A DNA stretch of 64,000 nt, taken from Actinomycetes bacterium. Lineage in GTDB: Bacteria > Actinomycetota > Actinomycetes > Actinomycetales > Micrococcaceae. Position 1 is the first letter of the stretch. Each line of letters opens with the position of its first letter. The position numbers and the translations under genes are program-made. The stretch spans positions 21,465-85,464 of the forward strand of contig JAFAAV010000051.1 in the NCBI GenBank assembly GCA_023426375.1, written 5' to 3'. Under the pieces are notes generated by a model. That model was not told the origin of the DNA, made no database searches, and saw only the letters and a program-made list of their open reading frames with translations. Below, one piece after another: positions 31,226-44,230 of the stretch.

Positions 31226-31849
31226 ATGAAAATCCTCGTGACCGGGTTCGAACCCTTCGGCCAAGACACGAAAAACGCCAGCGGCATGGCGGTCGAGCGA
31301 TTGCGCAAGCTCGATTGGGGTCCAGGAATCGATGTCGTCACTGCGATCCTCCCCGTCACCTGGGCTGGCTCGGTGCCCACACTCCTGGAGGCCATCGAAA
31401 CCCACCGGCCGCACGCCGTCGTCGCCCTGGGCGAGGCCGGCAGCCGCGCCGTCGTCACACCCGAGCGACGCGCCAGGAACCTCGGTCACGGCAGGATTCC
31501 CGACAACGACGACGCCGCCCGGTCGCCTGCGCCCCTCGACGAGGGTCCCGAATGGCTCAACTCCCGCATTGACCCCGACTTGCTGGTCGAGGCGATCCGA
31601 TCGGTGAACGTCCCGGTGGAGACCTCTGATGACGCGGGTGCGTTCCTCTGCAATGCCGTCTACCGTGCTCTGTTAAGTGAGACCGATCTGCCCGGAACCT
31701 TCGTTCATGTCCCCGCGGTCCGAACACAAGGAACCGCCACGGTGGGCCGAGAAACTGACCCGAGCGTGGCGGTGTCCTTATCGCAACTATCGATTGAACA
31801 ACTGGTCGACGCGGTTGCCGCGTGCGTTCGGCAGATCGCGCGTCACTGA
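31226..31849 (+). CDS. pcp: Pyroglutamyl-peptidase I
   Basis: MKILVTGFEPFG… N-terminus, catalytic Cys context DDAGAFLCNAVYY-like, late His (FVHVP). Confidence 0.85.
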   Translation: MKILVTGFEPFGQDTKNASGMAVERLRKLDWGPGIDVVTAILPVTWAGSVPTLLEAIETHRPHAVVALGEAGSRAVVTPERRARNLGHGRIPDNDDAARSPAPLDEGPEWLNSRIDPDLLVEAIRSVNVPVETSDDAGAFLCNAVYRALLSETDLPGTFVHVPAVRTQGTATVGRETDPSVAVSLSQLSIEQLVDAVAACVRQIARH

Positions 31850-32607
31850 CTGATCTTCCTCTTGTAAATCACCACCGCACCGATAATCGCGGCAACCAGG
31901 ATGCCGAGGCACCAGGCCACGGAAACCCAGATATCGTTTCCCACGGGCTGTTGAGCGAAAAGGTCGCGGATCGTATTGACGATGGAGGTGACCGGCTGGT
32001 TCTCGGCGAAGACTCGCACCGGCCCGGGCATGCTGCCTGTGGGAACGAAAGCAGAGCTGACGAACGGCAGGAAGATCAGCGGGTAGGAGAACGCGCTGGC
32101 ACCGTCCACGGTCTTCGCCGTGAGGCCTGCGATGACGGCCACCCACGTCAAAGCGAGAGTGAACAGCGCGAGTATCCCGGCAATCCCGAGCCAGGCCAAT
32201 ACCCCGGCTCCCGAACGGAAGCCCATGAGCAGGGCCACGCCCACAACGATCGCCACGGAGATCATGTTGGCGGCCAACGATGTCAGCACATGCGCCCAGA
32301 GGATTCCTGACCGCGCAATCGGCATCGACTGGAACCGTTCGAAGATTCCGTTCTGGGAGTCCATGAACAATCGATACGCGGTGTACGAGATGCCGGAGGC
32401 CACCGTGATCAGAAGGATGCCGGGAAGCATGTAGTTCACGTCGCTCTGCGACCCGGTGTCGATGGCGCCGCCCAGAATGAAGACGAACAACATCATGATG
32501 GCGATGGGCATGATCGCGGTGGTGATGATCGTGTCGATGCTTCGGGTCACGTGACGCATGGTCCGCACGGTGAGCACCGCAGTGTCACTGAAGAAATGCG
32601 TGGTCAT
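31843..32607 (-). CDS. ABC-2 type transporter permease (DrrB-like)
   Basis: 254 aa with six TM helices. ATGA overlap with the ATPase gene upstream. Confidence 0.8.
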   Translation of the reverse strand: MTTHFFSDTAVLTVRTMRHVTRSIDTIITTAIMPIAIMMLFVFILGGAIDTGSQSDVNYMLPGILLITVASGISYTAYRLFMDSQNGIFERFQSMPIARSGILWAHVLTSLAANMISVAIVVGVALLMGFRSGAGVLAWLGIAGILALFTLALTWVAVIAGLTAKTVDGASAFSYPLIFLPFVSSAFVPTGSMPGPVRVFAENQPVTSIVNTIRDLFAQQPVGNDIWVSVAWCLGILVAAIIGAVVIYKRKISQ

Positions 32608-33389
32608 AGCGAAGCCTTCTTCTCATGGTGAGTGCCACCGACGAGAGCGAGAAAGATGTCCTCGAGTGACGGTTGTTTTTCCACGTATTCGACTGTGGGC
32701 GCGGGCAGCAGAGATTTGAGTTCCGCGAGCGTTCCGTTCACAAGTATCCGGCCCTCGTGGAGAATCGCGATCTGATCGGCGAGCTGCTCGGCTTCGTCCA
32801 GGTACTGCGTGGTGAGTAGCACCGTAGTGCCCTGGTGGGCGAGCGCTTTTACCGCGTCCCACACCTCGATGCGGGCCTCGGGATCAAGCCCGGTGGTTGG
32901 TTCGTCCAGGAAGATCACCGGCGGATTGCCGATGAGACTCATGGCAATATCCAGCCGACGCCGCATACCGCCCGAGTAGGTCCCCGCCCTTCGTGAGGCG
33001 GCCTCATCCAGTGAGAAACGATTGAGCAGCTCATCAGCTATGGCACCCGGGTTGGCGAGATGACGCAACGTGGCCACTAGAACCAGGTTCTCGCGTCCCG
33101 TAAGGATCTCGTCCACCGCGGCGAATTGACCGGTGAGACTGAACGACTCGCGAACCTCCGCCGCCTCCGTAGCGACGTCGAACCCGTTCACGCTCACGGT
33201 TCCTGCGTCCTTTTTGAGCAGAGTCGCGAGGATCTTGACGATTGTGGTCTTGCCAGACCCATTGGAACCTAACAGGGCAAGGATGCTGCCTTGCGCCACG
33301 TCCAGGTCCACCCCGCGCAGCACCTCAAGTTTCTTGTAGGACTTCTCCAGTCCTCGAATGCGGATGGCCGGGACCGTCTGGGCGGGCAT
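32604..33389 (-). CDS. ABC transporter ATP-binding protein (DrrA-like)
   Basis: Walker A GSNGSGKTT, signature YSGGMRRRLDIA, Walker B VIFLDEPTTGLD. Confidence 0.9.
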   Translation of the reverse strand: MPAQTVPAIRIRGLEKSYKKLEVLRGVDLDVAQGSILALLGSNGSGKTTIVKILATLLKKDAGTVSVNGFDVATEAAEVRESFSLTGQFAAVDEILTGRENLVLVATLRHLANPGAIADELLNRFSLDEAASRRAGTYSGGMRRRLDIAMSLIGNPPVIFLDEPTTGLDPEARIEVWDAVKALAHQGTTVLLTTQYLDEAEQLADQIAILHEGRILVNGTLAELKSLLPAPTVEYVEKQPSLEDIFLALVGGTHHEKKASL

Positions 33390-33778
33390 CAGTCGGCCCT
33401 GCCCTCTGGTTCGTGACTGTCCCCGGTTGCTTGCTCAATGGCGGCGACCAGACGACTGCGTTCCTTCTGGATCCATTGGCCCTCCGAGTAGTTCTGGAGG
33501 AATGTCTCCGCGAATTCCACGGGGTCCTCTCCGACCACTTCACGCACGGGCGTACCGTCCGTTGCGCTCTGCTCGAACAGAACGAGCAGGTCATCCAGCA
33601 TGCGCAGCATGATGTTCCCGTCCGAGATCGCGCCGAAGTACATCAGGTACCTCTCCAACGCGTTGATAGCTGTTCGGTAATTGGCCGGGAGCTTCTGCTT
33701 CCGGTTCTTGTAGTTGCGGTAGCGCTTCTTGTCTTCGAGCGCTCCTGTTACTTTTTCGAGCCACTGCTGAGTCCTCAT
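33389..33778 (-). CDS. DUF1048 domain protein
   Basis: …KKRYRNYKNRKQKLPANYRTAINALERYLMY… typical of DUF1048 proteins that follow PadR regulators. 1-nt overlap with the ATPase start. Confidence 0.65.
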   Translation of the reverse strand: MRTQQWLEKVTGALEDKKRYRNYKNRKQKLPANYRTAINALERYLMYFGAISDGNIMLRMLDDLLVLFEQSATDGTPVREVVGEDPVEFAETFLQNYSEGQWIQKERSRLVAAIEQATGDSHEPEGRAD

Positions 33779-34110
33779 GACTGCCTGTCTCTTTCGCGGA
33801 GCTTGTCCAAACGTTCAGAGAGGAAGCTCCACGTCCTCCAGAACTCGTTCAGTTGTTCTCGCCCTTGGGCGTTGAGCGAGAAAACTTTTCGCGGCGGACC
33901 CTTCTCGGAGGGAACTTTCTCCACATCCACGAAGCCTCGCTGCTCGATCCTGACCAGCAATGCGTACACGGTGCCCTCAGCGATCTCAGCGAATCCTTGC
34001 TCCCGGAGCCACGCGGTGATCTCGTAGCCGTAGGCGGGACGTTCGGACAGAATCGCCAGGACGATGCCTTCGAGCGTGCCTTTCAGCATCTCGGTCGTTT
34101 GCTTGCCCAT
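33775..34110 (-). CDS. PadR family transcriptional regulator
   Basis: LKGTLEGIVLAILSERPAYGYEITAWLREQGF…EGTVYALLVRIEQRGFV winged-HTH. ATGA overlap with the DUF1048 gene. Confidence 0.9.
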   Translation of the reverse strand: MGKQTTEMLKGTLEGIVLAILSERPAYGYEITAWLREQGFAEIAEGTVYALLVRIEQRGFVDVEKVPSEKGPPRKVFSLNAQGREQLNEFWRTWSFLSERLDKLRERDRQS

Positions 34111-35586: not shown

Positions 35587-36077
35587 TCATCCACGTGTCG
35601 CTAATCTGCTGCAGTCTAGGAAGCAAGGGCATCGCCCAGGTGAACTCGGGACGTCCCAGGGAACAACTCGGCACCCACGAGCGACACCCGGGTGACATAC
35701 GGCAGCCGCACCACACCCTGTTGGGGGAGGCCTCGTCAACCTGTGAGCAGGCTCATAAATGCCCCACGTCGTGTCTACTGGCCAGTAATTTCTCTGATGA
35801 CCTGTAAGAACGGAAATACTCCCCAGATGTCACCCTGACCTTAATCAAATCGTTAGGTATTCCGATTGCAAATGCTTGATTAAGGCAGTTACGTTTAAGG
35901 CACAAATGAACCAGCAGGGGGATGCTGGAGATCCACCTCGCGCGACAGCATGACGCGCATCCCGTACGGTCGGGGGACCAGATCGGGAAACTTCATGACA
36001 CTAGGCTGCCACGTTTTCAAGCGGGCAGTTTTGCTTCTCCCTGCGTTACATGGTTCTTACTTGGGGGAGCTTTCTCG

Positions 36078-39000
36078 ATGGAACGTCGTCTTAATAAAGG
36101 TACGTCTCAAAAACTTGAAAGAATAGAAGAAATGGCGTCTGACCGGGCCGTATACCCGGTTGAGACACCGCCGGAACCACGAACGCTCGTAGACATCGTG
36201 CTGGACACCGTGGCCCAGTTCCCGGATGCCATTGCCCTGGAAGACGAGCAGGAGCGCGTGCCCTACGGCGAGCTGGAAGCCCGCATCGAATCACACGTGC
36301 AGCGTCTGTGGGATATCGGCGTGGGTCGTGGAGACCGCGTGGGTATCCGGGTCCCGTCCGGCGGTGCAGACCTCTACGTCGCCATCCTCGCCACGCTGTT
36401 CGCCGGTGTCGCCTACGTGCCGGTCGACTGGGACGATCCCGACGAGCGGGCCAATACCGTGTGGGAAGAAGCAGGCGTGGCCGCAATCTTCGGCCGGGAC
36501 CTCGAACTGACGCGCGTGGAGAGCATCGAAACCACGGGTGATACCGAACCACCGCGCACCCAGGACGATGCCTGGATCATTTTCACCTCCGGCTCCACCG
36601 GAAAGCCCAAGGGCGTAGCGATCACCCATCGTTCCGCCGCCGCTCTCGTGGACGCAGAAGCCAAGATGTACCTGCAGAAGCGCCCCATGGGCCCCGGTGA
36701 CCGCGTCATGGCGGGCCTGTCCGTGGCCTTCGATGCGTCCTGCGAAGAGATGTGGCTGGCCTGGCGTTACGGCGCCACGCTGATACCGGCCCCGCGCGAC
36801 GTCGTGCGGTCCGGTCCCGATCTCGGCCGCTGGATTATCAACCACCGCATCACCGCCGTCTCCACCGTGCCCACGTTGGCATCGCTGTGGCCCAGCGAGG
36901 CGCTGGACACCGTGCGTCTGTTGATTTTCGGCGGCGAAGCCTGCCCGCTGGAACTCACCCAACGGTTGGTCCGTCCCGGTCGCGAGGTCTGGAACACCTA
37001 CGGCCCCACCGAGGCCACCGTGATCGGATCGGGTGCCATCCTGACCGGTGACGCTCCCATTCGAATCGGCCTGCCCGTTCCCGGGTGGCAACTGGCCGTG
37101 GTGGATACCGACGGTCAGCCCGTGGCCTGGGGCGAAACCGGCGAACTGATCATCGGCGGCGTCGGCCTGGGCCGTTACCTGGATCCCGAAAAGGACGCCG
37201 AGAAGTACGCGTCGCTGCCCTCACTGGGCTGGGAACGCGCCTACCGCACCGGTGACATGGTCAAGGCAGACAAGGAAGGACTCGTTTTCGCGGGTCGTGT
37301 GGATGACCAGGTGAAGATCTCCGGCCGTCGCATGGAACTCGGTGAGATCGACGACTACATGAGCTCCGTACCGGGCGTTCGCGTGGGTGCGTGCGCCGTG
37401 CACCCCACACCCGGTGGCGACAACATCATTGCCGGGTACCTGGTACCTGACTTCGAAGGTGCCGTTGACCTGGTGGCCGTGCGAGCCTGGCTGTCCGAAA
37501 GGCTGCCGGGCCAGATGGTCCCCGCCCTGTGTCTCATGGACGAGTTGCCGTTGAAGACCTCGGGCAAGGTGGACCGCAAAGCCCTACCGTGGCCCATGCC
37601 GACCGACGGGCTCGATCAGAAGCCATCACTGGATCACGACCTCGAATGGCTCGCGGAGCTGTGGGCCGATCAGCTCGGTCCCCTACCCTTCACCGCGGAC
37701 AGCGACTTCTTCGCCATGGGAGGCAGCTCCGTAGGCGTCGCCCGCCTGGTCTCGGCGCTACGCCAGTCCCACCCGGACACGGAAATTGCACGCATCTACG
37801 CGGACCCCACCCTGCGCGGCATGGCCAACTACTTGGAAACGCTCGAAGCCTCCCAGGATTCCAAGCGGGAACCCGCGCCCTTGCCCGCCTGGACCGGTTG
37901 GGTCCAGGGAGCGTTCTTGGCTGCGCTGTGCGTCGCCAACGGCCTGCGCTACGTGGTGGGTTCCCTCATCGTCGTGTGGGTCCTCGCTGTGGTTGTAGGT
38001 GCCGGATGGGTACCCACTCCCCCGCTACTGCCGTTGATCATCGGCTGGCTCGTGATGTTCTCACTGCCCGGTCGCGTACTCGTCGGCTCCGCGTTCGTGA
38101 GACTGCTGACCGCCGGGCTCAAACCCGGTCACTATCCTCGGGGTAAGTGGAATCACCTACGAGTGTGGGCCGCTGAACGCCTGGTGGTTTTCAACAAGTA
38201 CGAGGTTCTGCTGGGCACTCCCATGGCCCGCACCCTCCACCGTCTCTTCGGTAACAAGGTGGGCAGCGACGCGCACCTGCATCACATGCCGCCCGTAACC
38301 GGTCTGGTCTCGATCGGTGAAGGTGCCACCGTGGAATTCGAGGCGGATCTCGCGGGTTACTGGCTCGACGGTGACACGTTCCACGTGGGCGCTATTGAAA
38401 TCGGCGCCCACTCGCGCGTCGGTACGCGCACGCTGGTCGACCCCGGTGCTCGCGTGGGCGCCCGGGCAGAGGTTCTGCCCGGTTCCCATGTGACGGGCAC
38501 GGTTCCCGACGGCGAGTTGTGGGGCGGGTCCCCCATGTACCATCGCGGTGCCGCGGCCCAGACCTGGCCCGACGTCGCTCCGGAGACCGTGGCCAACCTG
38601 CCCACCTGGGGCAAGGTCAAGTCTCATCTGGCTTACACCGGTGGTACCGCCGTCATTGGCTTGCTGCCGATCCTGGCCATCATTCCCGGTGCGCTCCTGA
38701 TCCTCCCGCAGGTCATCGGCATCCAGTTCTATGAACTGGTCTTCCCGATCCTCGCCCTGTGGGTACCGTTGTTCGTCATCCTCACCGCCGTCGTGTGGTT
38801 GTTGCTCGTGGTGGGTTGCGTGCGCCTGGTGGCAGGCATGATCAACCCCGGGTACTTCCCGCAGAACGGTCCGGTCGGTTGGGCCACGTGGTTCACCGAG
38901 ACTCTGATGCAGCGCACGTTGATCTCGACCTACCCGATCTACGCGTCCTGCGTCACCCCACTGTTCCTCCGCTTGTTGGGTGCCCGAGTGGGCCGCTCGG

Positions 39001-40148
39001 TGGAGATCTCTACTGCGGAAACCATTCCGCACCTGACCTCGCTGAAGGACGGCGCGTTCTTGGCGGATCACTCCCTGGTGGCCTCCCACCGATCCGGATT
39101 CGGCTGGGTTCATTTGGGAACGTCCGTGATCGGCGAGCGCACGTTCGTGGGTAACTCCGCGATCGTGGGTCCCGACCGTGATCTCCCCGAGGACGCTCTG
39201 GTGGCGGTCCTCAGCTCCGCACCTCACAAGGCCCCGGTCGGTTCGTCGTGGCTGGGCCGCCGTGCACAACCCATTGCTCGCGCCCACACGGAGGCCGACG
39301 AATCGGCGACTTTCCGCCCGCCCCGTCGCCTCCAGGCAGCGCGCGGTTTCGTGGAAGCGTTCCGCATGGTTCCGGCCATGGTCTCCGCATGGATCGACCT
39401 GATGATCGTGTACGCGTTGACCAGCATCTACATGAACTACGGAATGGGGCTGCAGGGGCTGCTCTACACCGCACTGTGGTCAGGTGTGGTCCTGCTGGCC
39501 GCCAGTACGCTGGCGTGTTTGGTCCCCGTGATCGTCAAGTGGGCTCTCATGGGCCGCTTCCGCACCGGCGAGCGCCCGCTGTTCAGCTCGTTCGTGTGGC
39601 GCAACGAGTTGGCGGACGTTTTCTCCGAGTCCCTGGCCGTGCCGTCCTTGGTTCGACTCAGCGTGGGATCCCCGCTGTTCAACGCCTGGTCGCGTCTCAT
39701 GGGTGCTCACGTGGAACGCGGTGTGTGGTGCGAAACCTGGTGGCTGCCCGAGTTCGACCTGGTCACCTTGGAAGAGGGCGTGTCCGTCAACCGCGGCACC
39801 GTGCTGCAGACCCACCTGTTCCACGATCGCATCATGCGCTTGGAGCCGGTCACCATGCGTCGCGGTTCCACGCTGGGACCCAACAGTTTTGTGCTGCCCG
39901 GCGCCACGATCGAAGAACGTTCCACGGTGGGCCCCGGCTCACTGGTCATGCGTCAAGAAACGGTGCCGGCCAACGGTAACTGGGGCGGTAATCCCATCCG
40001 ACATCTCGAACCCGGTGACCAGGCCATCAGTGCCCAGGTCGTTCCCGGACCGCAGGTGGCGGAACACGATCATCCGATCGTGCCCGTTGCACCCATCAAC
40101 ACATCGCAGACGGTCTCGACTGCAACGCCCGAGGAGGCCACCCGATGA
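36078..40148 (+). CDS. Pls/PosA-type single-module NRPS (A-T plus membrane-embedded hexapeptide-repeat C-terminal domains)
   Basis: A-domain cores IFTSGSTGKPKG, NTYGPTE, YRTGD, GRVDDQVKISGRRMELGEI, KTSGKVDRKAL. Thiolation site FFAMGGSSVGVARL. About 750 aa of alternating TM helices and LbH-like segments follow. No C or TE domain. Start ATG 36078 (GGGGAG RBS); alternative starts at 35922 and 36132. Confidence 0.8.
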   Translation: MERRLNKGTSQKLERIEEMASDRAVYPVETPPEPRTLVDIVLDTVAQFPDAIALEDEQERVPYGELEARIESHVQRLWDIGVGRGDRVGIRVPSGGADLYVAILATLFAGVAYVPVDWDDPDERANTVWEEAGVAAIFGRDLELTRVESIETTGDTEPPRTQDDAWIIFTSGSTGKPKGVAITHRSAAALVDAEAKMYLQKRPMGPGDRVMAGLSVAFDASCEEMWLAWRYGATLIPAPRDVVRSGPDLGRWIINHRITAVSTVPTLASLWPSEALDTVRLLIFGGEACPLELTQRLVRPGREVWNTYGPTEATVIGSGAILTGDAPIRIGLPVPGWQLAVVDTDGQPVAWGETGELIIGGVGLGRYLDPEKDAEKYASLPSLGWERAYRTGDMVKADKEGLVFAGRVDDQVKISGRRMELGEIDDYMSSVPGVRVGACAVHPTPGGDNIIAGYLVPDFEGAVDLVAVRAWLSERLPGQMVPALCLMDELPLKTSGKVDRKALPWPMPTDGLDQKPSLDHDLEWLAELWADQLGPLPFTADSDFFAMGGSSVGVARLVSALRQSHPDTEIARIYADPTLRGMANYLETLEASQDSKREPAPLPAWTGWVQGAFLAALCVANGLRYVVGSLIVVWVLAVVVGAGWVPTPPLLPLIIGWLVMFSLPGRVLVGSAFVRLLTAGLKPGHYPRGKWNHLRVWAAERLVVFNKYEVLLGTPMARTLHRLFGNKVGSDAHLHHMPPVTGLVSIGEGATVEFEADLAGYWLDGDTFHVGAIEIGAHSRVGTRTLVDPGARVGARAEVLPGSHVTGTVPDGELWGGSPMYHRGAAAQTWPDVAPETVANLPTWGKVKSHLAYTGGTAVIGLLPILAIIPGALLILPQVIGIQFYELVFPILALWVPLFVILTAVVWLLLVVGCVRLVAGMINPGYFPQNGPVGWATWFTETLMQRTLISTYPIYASCVTPLFLRLLGARVGRSVEISTAETIPHLTSLKDGAFLADHSLVASHRSGFGWVHLGTSVIGERTFVGNSAIVGPDRDLPEDALVAVLSSAPHKAPVGSSWLGRRAQPIARAHTEADESATFRPPRRLQAARGFVEAFRMVPAMVSAWIDLMIVYALTSIYMNYGMGLQGLLYTALWSGVVLLAASTLACLVPVIVKWALMGRFRTGERPLFSSFVWRNELADVFSESLAVPSLVRLSVGSPLFNAWSRLMGAHVERGVWCETWWLPEFDLVTLEEGVSVNRGTVLQTHLFHDRIMRLEPVTMRRGSTLGPNSFVLPGATIEERSTVGPGSLVMRQETVPANGNWGGNPIRHLEPGDQAISAQVVPGPQVAEHDHPIVPVAPINTSQTVSTATPEEATR

Positions 40149-41554
40149 ACGAACACAAAGTGGATGAAATAGCCGAGGGCGACCTGATGCCGGGTGAGCG
40201 ACCTCGCCCCGGTCAACGTCCTCCGCGCGAAGTGTGGACTGGCGGTTCGGACAATGGCCGCGGGGCCAGCACCGAGAACGAGCACTGGAGCGAGAACGCC
40301 CCGATCGTCACGGCACCACCTCGCGCCACGGCACCTTCGCCGCGGCAGGGCGCAGCGATACGCAACGTGGCCAGTTCGGACGGGCGGCGCACCAAGCGGC
40401 GCATCATGGGGGTCGACGCCGCTCGCGGCTTCGCGTTGATCGGTATGATCGCGGTTCACACCCTGCCCGCGTCCGTGGGCACCACCGACGAGCCCTCACT
40501 GACGTGGGTGCTTTTCGGCGGCCACTCCGCTGCTCTGTTCGCCGTCTTAGCCGGTGTCAGCTTGGCCTTCCTCACGGGCGGCAGGAACCCGCGACAGGGC
40601 CTTGACGCACGACGGGCCCGAGTGGGCATCGCGGTACGCGCGCTGTTGTTGTTCGCGATCGGTTTGCTGCTCAACACCATGGACTTCCCAGCGTTCAATA
40701 TCCTCACGTACTACGGAGTGATGTTCCTGCTGGCCATCCCCTTCACCATGATGTCGGTGCGCTGGCTCTTCGGAAGCGCCGTGTTCTTCATGATCTTCGC
40801 CCCGATGCTCATGCAGTCGACACTGGACGTTCTGCCGTCACACGTGCACGACAACGCCAACCTCGTGAACTTGTTCACGGCCCCCGGAACGGTTCTGGCG
40901 GAGTTGTTCCTGACCGGGACCTACCCTGCGCTTCCCTGGATGGCGTTCATCTGCCTGGGTATGGCGTTGGGCCGGTTGCCGTTGTCCCGTGATCGTATTC
41001 AGATTCTCCTGGTGATCTTCGGCGCCGTGATTGCGGCCGTGGCCAAGGGCTTGTCCATGATGATGCTGCTGCGCTTCGACGTGCGTGAAGCACTGGTGGC
41101 GTCCACCCCGTGGTTGACCAACAAAGAGGTCATGACCATCCAGAACTACGGTCCGGACCCCGAGCTTCCCACCACCACCATGAGCTGGTTGTTGATCTCC
41201 GGCCCGCACACCAACACTCCGTTCGCGATCGCCGTCAGCGCGGGTTTGGCCATGGTGGCGTTGGGTGCTTTCCTGTTGATCTGCCGCTGGATCGGGCGTC
41301 TGCTGGCTCCCCTGGGTGCCATGGGTTCCATGACCCTGACCCTCTACAGCGCGCACCTGGTGTTCCTGGCGTTCGTACCCATCAGCGAAACGCCCATGTT
41401 CTGGTTGATCGTCCAGATCGCGGTCGCTGCTCTGGTGGCGACGGCGTGGCAACACGCGGTGGGCTCCGGTCCCCTCGAGCGGTTGGTCACCAGGATCTCC
41501 CGTTCCGCGGGCCGCAGGTTAGTGTCCAACGGGCAGGTCGGTCCGCGGCACTGA
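40145..41554 (+). CDS. DUF1624/DUF418-type polytopic membrane protein (acyltransferase-like)
   Basis: About 95-aa disordered N-terminus, then RRIMGVDAARGFALIGMIAVH… and about 10 TM helices. ATGA overlap with the NRPS gene. Confidence 0.6.
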   Translation: MNEHKVDEIAEGDLMPGERPRPGQRPPREVWTGGSDNGRGASTENEHWSENAPIVTAPPRATAPSPRQGAAIRNVASSDGRRTKRRIMGVDAARGFALIGMIAVHTLPASVGTTDEPSLTWVLFGGHSAALFAVLAGVSLAFLTGGRNPRQGLDARRARVGIAVRALLLFAIGLLLNTMDFPAFNILTYYGVMFLLAIPFTMMSVRWLFGSAVFFMIFAPMLMQSTLDVLPSHVHDNANLVNLFTAPGTVLAELFLTGTYPALPWMAFICLGMALGRLPLSRDRIQILLVIFGAVIAAVAKGLSMMMLLRFDVREALVASTPWLTNKEVMTIQNYGPDPELPTTTMSWLLISGPHTNTPFAIAVSAGLAMVALGAFLLICRWIGRLLAPLGAMGSMTLTLYSAHLVFLAFVPISETPMFWLIVQIAVAALVATAWQHAVGSGPLERLVTRISRSAGRRLVSNGQVGPRH

Positions 41555-41672: not shown

Positions 41673-42879
41673 TTACAGCATCCCCACCAGGACACTGGCC
41701 ACGATGATCGATCCGGCACTCACGGACGTGAAGCCACCGATGAGCATGGGCGGCAGCAGGTGGTCGCGCAGCGCCGTGGATTCTTCCTCGTCACGCGCGG
41801 TGGAGCGGACGACTTCTTGGACGATCAGATAGTCGGCGGGGAATCCGTACATGGCCGTCAGGGCCACGGACATCCCCAGTTTGGGGTGCCAGCCCAGCAG
41901 TTTGGTCACGATGAACCCGCCGATCAGGATGCCTGATCATCCCGAATCCCAGGATCGCGAGAACGGGCAGCAGGGACGCAATCACATCATCGAGCGAGGC
42001 TGTCATGAGCGGTGCGACGACAATGCAGATGATGGCCGCCATGGCGATACCGAAGCTGTTACTGCGCTCCAGTACGCGGTCCGGAATGACGCCCAATGCC
42101 GTGAGGATGATGCCGAGCAGTAAGCCCCAGATGGAATAGCTGATCCCCGTCAACTCGCCCAGGTGGAAGGCCGCCGCGCCGGCGGTGAACACCAGGAACA
42201 GCAGGAACAGCTGGTTCTCGGCGAGCTTCTCCGGCAGGCGCACGAGTTTCGGGCGAGTGGCCACGGTGGTGCCCGCAGCGCCGTCGTTGTGTGCCGAGGA
42301 AGCCGAACTGGACGGCCCGGTAGCACTGAGCCGTTTGAGATCACCGGTGTCGCGGAGCTTGAGCGAGTAGCTGCGCAACAGGTAATTGGTGAGCGGCATG
42401 GACGGCAGCGACTGCAACATCAGCACCAAGGACGGAACCACGATCACGGCAGTGGCGATCCCCGCTTCGGTGAGACCTTGCGTGGTGAGTGAGGTGGAGA
42501 TGATGCCGCCGGCCAGCGGGCCCGCACCGGCGACCGAGTATTCGAATCCGAACAGCGGTGTGACGATGGCGAGCACCATGCCCACTCCCACGAGCATGCC
42601 GCCCAACGCGATCAACACAGCTTTCCACTGCGCCTTCATGGTGGACAGCGGAATCAGCGACCCCATGTGCACCATGATGGGCGGCTGAATGAGCGTACCC
42701 ACGATCACCATGGTGGATGTCGTGACGAGATCCTCGGGAATCAGGCCGATCTTGGCAAATATAAACGCGCCCAACATGGCTACCAGCAGCGAGGGCACTC
42801 GCGCCTTGGACCAAATGGACAGGATCTCTCCCACGGCGATGAACGCCAGGATGATGGCCGCCGCCAACAGTGGAGACAT
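41673..42879 (-). pseudogene. Polytopic membrane transporter (family unassigned), +1 frameshift
   Basis: ORF 41791..43029 (real start ATG 42879, MSPLLAAAIILAF…) loses sense after …LAILGFGMI. ORF 41673..41909 continues in another frame (…GILIGGFIVTKLLGWHPKLGMSVALTAMYGFPADYLIV…). Deleting one base near 41934 joins them. Span is 3n+1 nt. Confidence 0.65.
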
Positions 42880-42929
42880 GGTGGTTCCTTCCGTGGTGAA
42901 CCGATGAGGGGTGGCTGAGTGCTGCGGGT

Positions 42930-44114
42930 CTAGGCGGAGGCGAGCCGGTCGAAAGCCAGCTGTGCCAGCGCGGCAGCTTGGTCGCCCAGGACGGCGTCGT
43001 CGAAGAGCACGTTGGGTGAGTGGTTCCAATCCGCAGTTTCCGGGTCAACATCCGGCGGGCTGCACTGCAAGAAGATGAAGCAACCGGGAACGTCCTGGAG
43101 GACGTAGGAGAAGTCCTCGGATCCCATGAGGGGGTTCGGGTATTCGACCACCCGGTCCTCCCCGAAGGTCTTACTGAGCGTGGCTGCGGTGAAGTCGGAC
43201 TCGGTTTCGTCATTGACCGTGACCGGGTACAGGACCTCCCAATTCACCTCGGCCCGCACGCCGTGGGCTACGGCGATACCGTCAGCGAGTTCCTTGACCG
43301 CTCCGGGAAAGGTTTCGGTGGTCTCTGCGGACAACGTGCGAACGCTTGCGCCCAGGCTGGCGCTGTCCGGAATCACGTTGATGGCGGATCCGGCGGACAA
43401 CTGCGAGATCGACAGCACCACGGGGTCGAACACGTTGAAACGACGGGTCACCATGACCTGCAACGCGGTACCGAATTCCAACAGCGCGGGGACGGGGTCC
43501 TTGGCGGTGTGGGGCTGGGATCCGTGTCCGCCCTTGCCGTGGAACGTCACCGACAGTTTATTAGCCCCGGCCATTGCGGTAGTGGGCCAGTAGTTGAAGA
43601 CTCCGGGCACACCAGGGGCCACGTGGATGGCATACGCGGCCACGGGCTTGTCCCCGGTGACCTCCAGCAGCCCTTCGTCGAGCATCGGCTTGGCCCCGCC
43701 CGGACCCTCCTCACCGGGCTGGAACATGAAAATCACGTTGCCCCGCAGCTCATCCCGGCGAGCGCTGAGCAGCTTGGCCGCGCCCACGAGGCCCGCGGTG
43801 TGCAGGTCGTGGCCGCACGCGTGCATATTGTCGTTCTGGGAGGCGTAATCCAGCCCGGTCTGTTCGACCACGGGCAAGCCGTCCATGTCCCCACGCAGCA
43901 GCACCGTGGGGCCGGGTTGTCCTCCGCGTAGAACCGCGACCACGGAGGTCAACGACTCACCGAGGGTGATCTCGAGATCGCATCCTGCCAGCGCGTCGAG
44001 AACCTGCTGCTGTGTCCACGGCAGGTCATTGCCGAGTTCCGGGTGCGCGTGAAGTCTCCTGCGCAGCTCCACGAGCTCGGGCAACATTTCCTGGGCAGCC
44101 GCAACGAAAGACAT
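42930..44114 (-). CDS. M20-family amidohydrolase (N-acyl-amino-acid amidohydrolase/hippuricase-like)
   Basis: …LRRRLHAHPELG…VLLRGDMDGLPV…MHACGHDLH…FMFQPGEEG… M20D motifs. Start ATG 44114 preferred over 44141. Confidence 0.8.
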   Translation of the reverse strand: MSFVAAAQEMLPELVELRRRLHAHPELGNDLPWTQQQVLDALAGCDLEITLGESLTSVVAVLRGGQPGPTVLLRGDMDGLPVVEQTGLDYASQNDNMHACGHDLHTAGLVGAAKLLSARRDELRGNVIFMFQPGEEGPGGAKPMLDEGLLEVTGDKPVAAYAIHVAPGVPGVFNYWPTTAMAGANKLSVTFHGKGGHGSQPHTAKDPVPALLEFGTALQVMVTRRFNVFDPVVLSISQLSAGSAINVIPDSASLGASVRTLSAETTETFPGAVKELADGIAVAHGVRAEVNWEVLYPVTVNDETESDFTAATLSKTFGEDRVVEYPNPLMGSEDFSYVLQDVPGCFIFLQCSPPDVDPETADWNHSPNVLFDDAVLGDQAAALAQLAFDRLASA

Positions 44115-44230
44115 GACCTCACCACTTTTCGACCTGGGCATCGGATGATCAGAATTCAGTAATCCTTCACTTACCGTATGCCCAGCCCGTGATTCAAAGC
44201 ACCACCTGTCGCTTTTGTGTCACATTGTGG

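Follow-up and report, generated by a model that had tools for sequence, protein, structure and literature searches.

A predicted epsilon-poly-L-lysine synthetase gene (pls) of Kocuria overlaps at its 3′ end with a gene for a transmembrane acyltransferase, and the two genes were found together throughout one clade of pls loci. The window, i.e., the whole stretch of 64,000 nucleotides that was analysed, harbors a locus assigned to Kocuria (93% to K. carniphila). Judged by its sequence, the synthetase is an intact relative of epsilon-poly-L-lysine synthetase. The clade-wide pairing of pls with the acyltransferase gene appears to be undescribed, as no paper tying AT3/DUF1624 proteins to pls was found in the literature search. 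On balance, it seems probable that the locus encodes a lysine-polymer synthetase along with a translationally coupled member of the transmembrane acyltransferase (TmAT) superfamily, which acylates an extracytoplasmic acceptor in the course of making or tolerating the polymer. The features of the locus are given below with their coordinates in the window, their strand and the basis of the assignment.

35810..36077, + strand: conserved proximal leader of pls, including the ribosome-binding site GGGGGAG at 36063-36069 (alignment with K. carniphila, locus L001)
36078..40148, + strand: pls, single-module synthetase of the Pls/PosA family, predicted epsilon-poly-L-lysine synthetase, 1356 aa (domain searches, specificity code, alignment)
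36207..37607, + strand: adenylation (A) domain, residues ~44-510, code DAESIGTVIK (PF00501, 7WEW match, 1AMU numbering)
37644..37835, + strand: carrier (T/PCP) domain with the FFAMGGSS phosphopantetheine site (PF00550)
37956..39998, + strand: Pls/PosA terminal membrane polymerisation domain, in which three transmembrane (TM) hairpins and three beta-helix-like soluble segments are predicted to alternate (TIGR02353, hydrophobicity, Hexapep)
40131..40137, + strand: ribosome-binding site GAGGAGG of the acyltransferase gene, within the 3′ end of pls (sequence reading)
40145..41554, + strand: TmAT-superfamily (HGSNAT_cat/AT3) protein, 469 aa, ATGA-coupled to pls (Pfam, motif, AF2 fold)

The longest open reading frame for pls opens at 35922. 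The ATG at 36078, which the first-pass annotation had taken as the start, was supported over it, and the open reading frames were as described there. This ATG and its ribosome-binding site are both kept in K. carniphila, in which the longer frame is broken by 1-nt and 3-nt indels just 5′ of the ATG. Relatives in RefSeq are annotated 37-40 aa shorter, and hence the exact start is slightly uncertain. Alignment with the K. carniphila locus, inspected by eye, showed that the proximal part of the leader is visibly much better kept than the distal part (~35650-35800). The search of the 490-nt non-coding leader against Rfam (E ≤ 1) revealed neither a lysine riboswitch nor any other RNA apart from one chance lncRNA match. 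A scan with the sigma-70 consensus found no promoter-like site, and terminator-like sites were no commoner than in shuffled sequence. The search for transcript evidence returned no RNA run with the stretch, only DNA-like contigs and unrelated metatranscriptomes.

Domain searches placed PF00501 at residues 44-364 of the synthetase (4.2e-61) and PF00550 at residues 523-586 (1.7e-9, 38.2 bits), where FFAMGGSS supplies the phosphopantetheinyl serine; TIGR01733 reached 315.0 bits, slightly below its cutoff of 317.4. The terminal domain TIGR02353 matched residues 627-1307 over its full length (model positions 20-695 of 695) with 565.8 bits, well above the trusted cutoff of 423.1. This C-terminal region carries three hydrophobic hairpins (~613-671, 851-926, and 1097-1159), a Hexapep match and weak matches to left-handed beta-helix (LbH) structures in the PDB. 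No condensation (C) or thioesterase (TE) domain was detected at E ≤ 0.01, AMP-binding, PP-binding and Hexapep being the only matches. The single-module architecture noticed in the first-pass annotation, i.e., A-T without C or TE and with a membrane and hexapeptide-like tail, is thus borne out by these matches, including the terminal domain on which that reading hinged. Of the 343 columns conserved to at least 95% among 79 relatives, the protein retains 337; the six differences are all conservative and all fall in the A domain, which holds 192 of these columns. The same A-T-(TM hairpin + beta-helix)x3 arrangement without C/TE is found in Pls of Streptomyces albulus (A domain 7WEW) and in that of Corynebacterium variabile, a proven Pls. 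With the S. albulus enzyme, the A domain shares 58.8% identity, and homologues of the Streptomyces type show ~48-51% identity over the full length, whereas in phylogeny the window pls falls in a separate, uncharacterised clade.

The substrate specificity code had earlier been derived by hand as DAESIGTVIK and described as lysine-like. Numbering against a GrsA fragment that matches 1AMU residues 234-452 exactly reproduced it with the same single gap before 322, giving D235, A236, E239, S278, I299, G301, T322, V330 and I331; the tenth residue, K517, lies within SGKVDRK. The code is of the basic-substrate type. Its first eight positions are identical to those of 7WEW (DAESIGTVV), and the ninth is a conservative V331I change. 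The pattern DAESIGT[V/I][V/I] was present in all 79 scorable nearest genome relatives. The A domain of S. albulus Pls was also the top match in the PDB (7WEW; E 2.4e-181, 58.8% identity over 490 positions), followed by chains of linear gramicidin synthase at ~1e-111, with other A domains far lower. PosA, the delta-poly-L-ornithine synthetase of Acinetobacter baumannii, belongs to the same TIGR02353 family and shares the overall architecture but has the code DMEHNGTVSK and a far lower A-domain similarity to the window pls; the code of the poly-beta-lysine enzyme reads DGESISVVNK (PMC10522769 for both codes). The second code position determines the length of the side chain accommodated, with Ala for lysine, Met in PosA and Phe in the PDAP/PDAB synthetases (PMC10522769).

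The gene downstream of pls is coupled to it by an ATGA overlap, as noted earlier; its ATG occupies 40145-40147 and the TGA of pls 40146-40148, and the ribosome-binding site is GAGGAGG. The DUF1624 part of the label first given to its product, DUF1624/DUF418, stands: PF07786 (formerly DUF1624, now HGSNAT_cat) matched with 6.5e-18 and 65.5 bits (cutoff 22), and PF01757 (Acyl_transf_3) with 2.1e-9 and 37.3 bits (cutoff 31). The DUF418 part was not sustained, since Pfam DUF418 (PF04235, the YeiB C-terminal region) gave no match at E ≤ 10 in the protein or in two orthologues, although NCBI names the orthologues "DUF418 domain-containing" and one paralogue of Arthrobacter pullicola showed a weak DUF418 match (2.1e-4). 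The catalytic DxxRx10H motif defined for AT3-type proteins (PMC12423673) was found in helix 1; its residues D91, R94 and H105 are shared without exception by 35 homologues. The N-terminal 85 residues show little conservation and are disordered, and a 10-helix core spans ~86-460. PDB sequence searches with the acyltransferase, and with the alpha/beta-hydrolase of related loci described below, found nothing, and matches came from fold comparison alone. The AF2 model of the acyltransferase (pLDDT 83.7, pTM 0.80) had human HGSNAT as all of its 13 best PDB matches with probability 1.00, the similarity being moderate (TM 0.42-0.46, ~15% identity); GWT1 followed at 0.89. Acyl-CoA-dependent transfer to an extracytoplasmic acceptor is predicted from these features. 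The protein shares the 10-helix core, DxxRx10H and PF07786 plus PF01757 with the AT3 O-acyltransferases (OafA/OafB, OatA) and human HGSNAT (PMC12423673, PMC9833829, PMC7448272), but it differs from them in lacking a fused SGNH or luminal domain, in its 85-aa disordered N-terminal extension and in its predicted operon context with a polyamino-acid synthetase, which was not found in the literature searched.

The genomic organization was compared across 80 related pls loci. The first-pass annotation had named a peptidase gene as the neighbour of Streptomyces pls, and rightly so: there the next gene codes for the M1 peptidase PldII (PMC8117764), and an M1 (PldII-type) peptidase gene lies near pls in 67 of the 80 loci, directly downstream in nearly all of these. 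No M1/PldII homologue occurs within the 64-kb window, which thus departs from the classical pls-pldII arrangement, and no peptidase gene lies within 6 kb of pls in Kocuria and the two Corynebacterium. The acyltransferase gene occupies the slot of pldII, immediately downstream and co-oriented. Like the membrane-bound M1 endopeptidase, the acyltransferase presumably relates to how the cell deals with the polymer, but the two are unrelated in fold and chemistry.

The pls genes partnered with an acyltransferase group in a single clade (SH-aLRT support 100%) comprising Kocuria, the two Corynebacterium, Nesterenkonia and Arthrobacter pullicola; a long branch in the pls tree separates it from the clade of the characterised genera, and no characterised member of it was found in the literature. 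The topology of the acyltransferase tree largely agrees with that of pls. Only pls and the acyltransferase gene are common to all loci of the clade, and the flanks differ. The acyltransferase start overlaps the preceding stop in the window and in L001, L002, L003, L081/82, L083/84 and L088; the preceding gene is pls, with the exception of L008, in which it is dapA. In Nesterenkonia, the cluster reads pls-dapA-acyltransferase, with a phosphopantetheinyl transferase (PPTase) gene on the opposite strand and then an M1 peptidase gene. Both the acyltransferase and an M1 peptidase are present in Nesterenkonia and A. pullicola, which branch earliest within the clade in the midpoint-rooted tree; the acyltransferase is thus not a simple substitute for the peptidase. 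The earlier suggestion of a distinct partner in place of the peptidase therefore holds as regards a kept, coupled and monophyletic pairing, but not as a plain replacement. In most relatives, a gene for a membrane-anchored, orphan alpha/beta-hydrolase lies beside the pair; it is absent from the window and from K. carniphila. The window contains no homologue of PldII, PPTase, type II thioesterase, DapA or the alpha/beta-hydrolase. An M20 amidohydrolase gene and a broken transporter gene located just 3′ of the pair were considered as cluster members and rejected, as they are absent from K. carniphila and all other loci of the clade.

In the proposed mechanism, pls and the acyltransferase gene would form a single operon on the Kocuria chromosome. 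The A domain would, going by its code, adenylate L-lysine and load the carrier domain. The C-terminal membrane domain would join the lysines via the epsilon-amine and export the cationic polymer, as suggested by homology to Pls of S. albulus and C. variabile. The acyltransferase would be translated by coupling to pls and may acylate an extracytoplasmic acceptor, serving the making or the tolerance of the polymer. Enzymes of the TmAT superfamily carry acyl groups from cytoplasmic acyl-CoA across the membrane to an acceptor at its outer face. As acceptor, we tentatively favour a glycopolymer of the cell envelope, the acylation of which would confer self-protection or retain the polycation. To our knowledge, no TmAT member acylates a peptide or a peptide amine, which argues against the polymer as acceptor. 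The TmAT acceptors named in the cited literature are all sugars: glucosamine (HGSNAT), inositol (GWT1) and surface carbohydrates (AT3) (PMC9558356, PMC12423673).

The polylysine chain itself ranks second as acceptor and is rather unlikely. Here, the acyltransferase would N-acylate the exported polylysine (with acetyl or succinyl groups, for example) at its alpha-amines or N-terminus, yielding a modified or transiently masked, non-toxic polymer. The coupling of the gene to pls throughout the clade would fit such a role, as would the presence in the superfamily of a true transmembrane N-acetyltransferase, HGSNAT, which acts on the amine of glucosamine and is also the top fold match. The loops predicted to face outward carry a net negative charge, about -4 in the loop 310-358, and the membrane-anchored alpha/beta-hydrolase of the relatives could remove or relay the acyl group. 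N-acetylation is also the route of self-resistance to streptothricin, an antibiotic containing beta-lysine. Against this, Kocuria genomes carry several acyltransferase paralogues each, away from pls, which share the conserved residues and have loops that are just as acidic, and the hydrolase is missing from the window and K. carniphila. Comparison of pls-linked with unlinked copies showed a difference only in the C270 column, which is not informative; with a single column separating them, the sequence gives no pointer to polylysine as acceptor. The broader proposal is less probable still, namely, that polylysine in the Micrococcaceae/Corynebacterium clade is tied to a transmembrane acylation system, joined in most relatives by the orphan hydrolase, in which the TmAT acylates nascent epsilon-polylysine to give an N-acylated or reversibly masked polymer that protects the producer.

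It is improbable that the adjacency has no meaning for polylysine, i.e., that a general envelope-modifying paralogue came to lie after pls by chance and was co-inherited. The family is expanded in Kocuria, some of the unlinked copies are found in unrelated surroundings, close to copper/cytochrome or nitrite-reductase genes, and no residues are specific to the linked copies. Yet the pair is retained although the genes on either side change, it occurs in four genera, including an apparent transfer to Corynebacterium as a unit, the start codon overlaps the previous stop in nearly all cases, and the Nesterenkonia genes (pls-dapA-acyltransferase, PPTase and M1 peptidase) make up a coherent lysine-polymer cluster. 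A different product of the synthetase, whether another cationic homopolymer (of ornithine, diaminobutyrate or beta-lysine) or a differently linked lysine polymer, is very unlikely: the clade paired with the acyltransferase is uncharacterised and differs from the peptidase-partnered clade at 19 fixed positions, of which several lie in the C2 segment, and the window pls has I instead of V at position 331, but code positions 235-330 are the same as in proven Pls, the second position carries the lysine-length Ala, and the A domain reaches 607 bits against Pls compared with ~135 bits against the 399-400-aa "non-ribosomal peptide synthetase" chains 8gic/8gjp/8glc, which we tentatively take to be PosA.

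Epsilon-poly-L-lysine is an antimicrobial polymer approved for preserving food, and actinobacteria of skin and cheese commonly carry Pls genes. Public records name the members of the 90% protein cluster "Pls/PosA family NRPS [Kocuria ...]," and antiSMASH-based papers list epsilon-polylysine clusters in Kocuria; hence, the synthetase itself is an uncharacterised example of a known enzyme type. If the coupled acyltransferase only modifies the envelope, the locus would be a Pls cluster of the ordinary kind whose accessory gene is specific to the lineage. Acylation of polylysine, if true, would be the first case of a peptide-amine acceptor for the AT3/HGSNAT superfamily and could account for the polymer escaping cationic-dye assays of coryneform bacteria. 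Pls of C. variabile is silent in its native host (PMC8117764). The conserved, predicted pls-acyltransferase operon provides a concrete two-gene unit bearing on self-protection, on modified polylysine and on non-sugar TmAT acceptors, and the orphan secreted hydrolase present in most relatives adds to this testable unit.

The ORF from 35922 to 40148 (+ strand), which contains pls, is followed by a second from 40145 to 41554, and G+C around the locus is 62–68%. Pfam analysis of the synthetase revealed the features listed below and neither a condensation nor a thioesterase domain.

Pls residues 44-364: AMP-binding domain (4.2e-61)
Pls residues 523-586: PP-binding domain
Pls, one repeat: Hexapep

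The NCBIfam model TIGR02353 (Pls/PosA family non-ribosomal peptide synthetase; curated cutoff, 423.1 bits) matched residues 627–1307 over model positions 20–695 of 695 with 565.8 bits, and a hydropathy scan placed three hydrophobic hairpins at ∼613–671, 851–926, and 1097–1159, setting apart three soluble segments. This alternation is the published layout of Pls (PMC8117764). Pfam, TIGR02353, and hydropathy thus agree with the first-pass annotation, which had described a single A-T module lacking C and TE domains and ending in a membrane region.

The closest solved structure was 7WEW, the A domain of the Streptomyces albulus ε-poly-L-lysine synthase (E 2.4e-181, 607 bits), with 58.8% identity to the window A domain over 490 aligned positions, followed by linear gramicidin synthase chains (∼1e-111). 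The 399–400-aa "non-ribosomal peptide synthetase" PDB chains, which we tentatively take to be PosA, matched at ∼1e-38. The numbering of the specificity code was fixed by an exact match of the GrsA fragment to 1AMU residues 234–452, and the alignment contained the same single gap before position 322 that had been drawn by hand. At positions 235/236/239/278/299/301/322/330/331, the window code read DAESIGTVI vs. DAESIGTVV in the 7WEW Pls and DAWTIAAIC in GrsA, bearing out the proposed Lys-type code. The pattern DAESIGT[V/I][V/I] was present in all 79 of the nearest scorable genome relatives. The codes of PosA and of the ε-poly-β-lysine enzyme are DMEHNGTVSK and DGESISVVNK, respectively, and code position 2 tunes chain length (Ala for Lys, Met for Orn, Phe for Dap/Dab) (PMC10522769). 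Lys517 was located in SGKVDRK. Of 343 columns with a conservation of 95% or more in the 79 relatives, the window protein retains 337, and its six departures are Ala/Val- or Leu/Ile-type changes; the synthetase therefore looks catalytically intact.

The nearest pls locus was that of Kocuria carniphila CCM 132 (93% identity), followed by K. tytonis (80%). Records in the 90% cluster of Pls (K. carniphila, K. atrinae, K. gwangalliensis, and Kocuria sp.) are named "Pls/PosA family non-ribosomal peptide synthetase," a Kocuria genomics paper reports antiSMASH-derived ε-poly-L-lysine and NAPAA clusters (PMC12149201), and the Corynebacterium variabile homologue is proven to make ε-PL (Jiang et al., 2021; PMC8117764). 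Hence, the window synthetase is an uncharacterized member of a known, already annotated kind. Pls genes occur in many coryneform genera (Jiang et al., 2021), and a synthetase of this type is nothing unusual among Actinobacteria.

The ATG at 36078, originally proposed as the pls start, has the strongest support: GGGGGAG lies ahead of it (36063–36069), alignment showed both to be kept in K. carniphila, and the longer frame is disrupted there by 1- and 3-base indels directly upstream of the ATG. The codon of internal Met19 is ATA in K. carniphila. The first 40 residues are uncertain as RefSeq annotates pls relatives 37–40 residues shorter; the domain, code, and comparative results are independent of them. 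The leader was also aligned with K. carniphila.

35810-36077: proximal part of the 490-nt pls leader

By eye, conservation here was much higher than in the distal leader, and the segment contains the perfectly conserved stretch CCTTAATCAAATCGTTAGGTATTCCGATTGCAAAT. It matched no Rfam family and may be regulatory.

The ATG of the downstream gene (40145–40147) overlaps the pls stop codon (40146–40148), as first described, with GAGGAGG 7 nt upstream. A search for transcripts of the locus gave none. The DUF1624/DUF418 label given to its 469-aa product held for DUF1624 (now HGSNAT_cat, PF07786; 65.5 bits, above cutoff) but not for DUF418, whose Pfam model gave no match; Acyl_transf_3 (PF01757) also scored above cutoff (37.3 bits). 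D91, R94, and H105, invariant in an alignment of 35 homologues, form a DxxRx10H motif in helix 1, the motif that defines AT3-type members of the transmembrane acyltransferase (TmAT) superfamily (PMC12423673). An AlphaFold2 model (pLDDT 83.7, pTM 0.80) showed 85 disordered N-terminal residues and then a helical membrane core. Its best 13 PDB fold matches were human HGSNAT (probability 1.00, TM 0.42–0.46), followed by GWT1 (probability 0.89). Given a cytoplasmic N-terminus, we infer that helix 1 has H105 at its outer end, like in AT3 enzymes.

An M1-family peptidase (assignment checked by Pfam) was found in 67 of 80 related pls loci, usually with its start no more than ∼100 nt from the pls stop. 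Such loci show the classical pls-pldII arrangement, with the peptidase that the first-pass annotation had named as the neighbor of pls in Streptomyces. The acyltransferase was borne by 10 sequences, namely the window, five Kocuria, two Corynebacterium, Nesterenkonia sandarakina, and Arthrobacter pullicola, which formed one pls clade (SH-aLRT 100%). The idea of a distinct partner was thereby strengthened, the coupled acyltransferase being conserved across this clade. The overlapping pair also recurs in additional Kocuria genomes and in metagenome contigs. Apart from pls and the acyltransferase, no gene is common to the whole clade; flanking genes vary. The two Corynebacterium pairs (L006, L007) are nested inside Kocuria on long branches, which suggests that the pair moved horizontally as a unit. 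Two clusters carry both the acyltransferase and the peptidase.

L008:9936-14627: Nesterenkonia cluster with dapA between pls and acyltransferase, PPTase, and M1 peptidase
L009:2896-14994: A. pullicola cluster with dapA between pls and acyltransferase, PPTase, and M1 peptidase

The Nesterenkonia order is pls, dapA, acyltransferase, PPTase (opposite strand), and M1 peptidase; in A. pullicola, a comparable gene set is joined by a second acyltransferase copy. Since both genes occur together here, the acyltransferase is an added, conserved component of its pls clade, and the M1 peptidase would have been lost later from the pls neighborhood in Kocuria and Corynebacterium. The dapA gene encodes dihydrodipicolinate synthase and serves lysine supply. 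In some Kocuria genomes, namely K. tytonis (L002) and the genome of L081/L082, two genes directly follow the acyltransferase in convergent orientation; neither was found within the 64-kb window.

L081:8478-10021 (-): PPTase (ACPS) and type II thioesterase
L002:11604-13129 (-): PPTase (ACPS) and type II thioesterase

Kocuria genomes carry an expanded acyltransferase family, with several paralogues each (45–50% identical) in unrelated gene contexts; some adjoin copper/cytochrome oxidase assembly or nitrite reductase genes.

L085:1528-2763 (-): HGSNAT_cat/AT3-like paralogue
L085:7001-8230: HGSNAT_cat/AT3-like paralogue
L083:13925-15148: HGSNAT_cat/AT3-like paralogue
L087:6001-7266: HGSNAT_cat/AT3-like paralogue

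Conserved residues were equal in 44 linked-clade and 77 unlinked-clade acyltransferases (membership assigned from the tree, with gene context checked for some members), a single column separated them (C270 vs. L), and their outer loops were similarly acidic; no acceptor-indicating feature was thus found in this comparison. The sequence itself names no acceptor, and those given in the cited TmAT papers are all sugars (PMC9558356, PMC12423673); a cell-envelope glycopolymer is therefore tentatively ranked first. The polylysine chain itself ranks second and is rather unlikely. That the two genes adjoin by chance is improbable because the pair is conserved.

A third gene lies beside the pair in most clade members and is absent from the 64-kb window and K. 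carniphila.

L081:1618-2565: orphan α/β-hydrolase-like protein
L083:1566-2606: orphan α/β-hydrolase-like protein
L002:4676-5629: orphan α/β-hydrolase-like protein
L007:4717-5811 (-): orphan α/β-hydrolase-like protein
L008:14776-15696: orphan α/β-hydrolase-like protein

Its product (300–350 aa, N-terminal membrane anchor) had no Pfam or PDB sequence match and contains invariant HGDG, GYSGG, Asp, and His. The AlphaFold2 model (pLDDT 83.8) matched α/β-hydrolase esterases and the DPP-IV-type peptidase catalytic domain (probability 1.00). Speculatively, it might serve as a substitute polymer hydrolase or, by analogy with SGNH domains for AT3 domains, as an outer-face partner of the acyltransferase.

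Two blocks flanking the pls pair are missing from K. carniphila, whose locus is otherwise syntenic, and look like strain-specific insertions.

31843-34110: PadR-DUF1048-ABC efflux block
41673-44141: M20 amidohydrolase (CpsA/DoeB2-like) and broken transporter block
41673-42880 (-): polytopic membrane protein, frameshifted, no Pfam match

A frameshift near 41934 splits the last of these, which lies within the second block; a close relative's contig in public run X1 has one base fewer exactly there, so intact copies exist.

Sequence, domains, code, and comparative context confirmed the first-pass observation and support its interpretation. With its conserved, coupled acyltransferase partner, the pls locus appears to be a previously undescribed variant.
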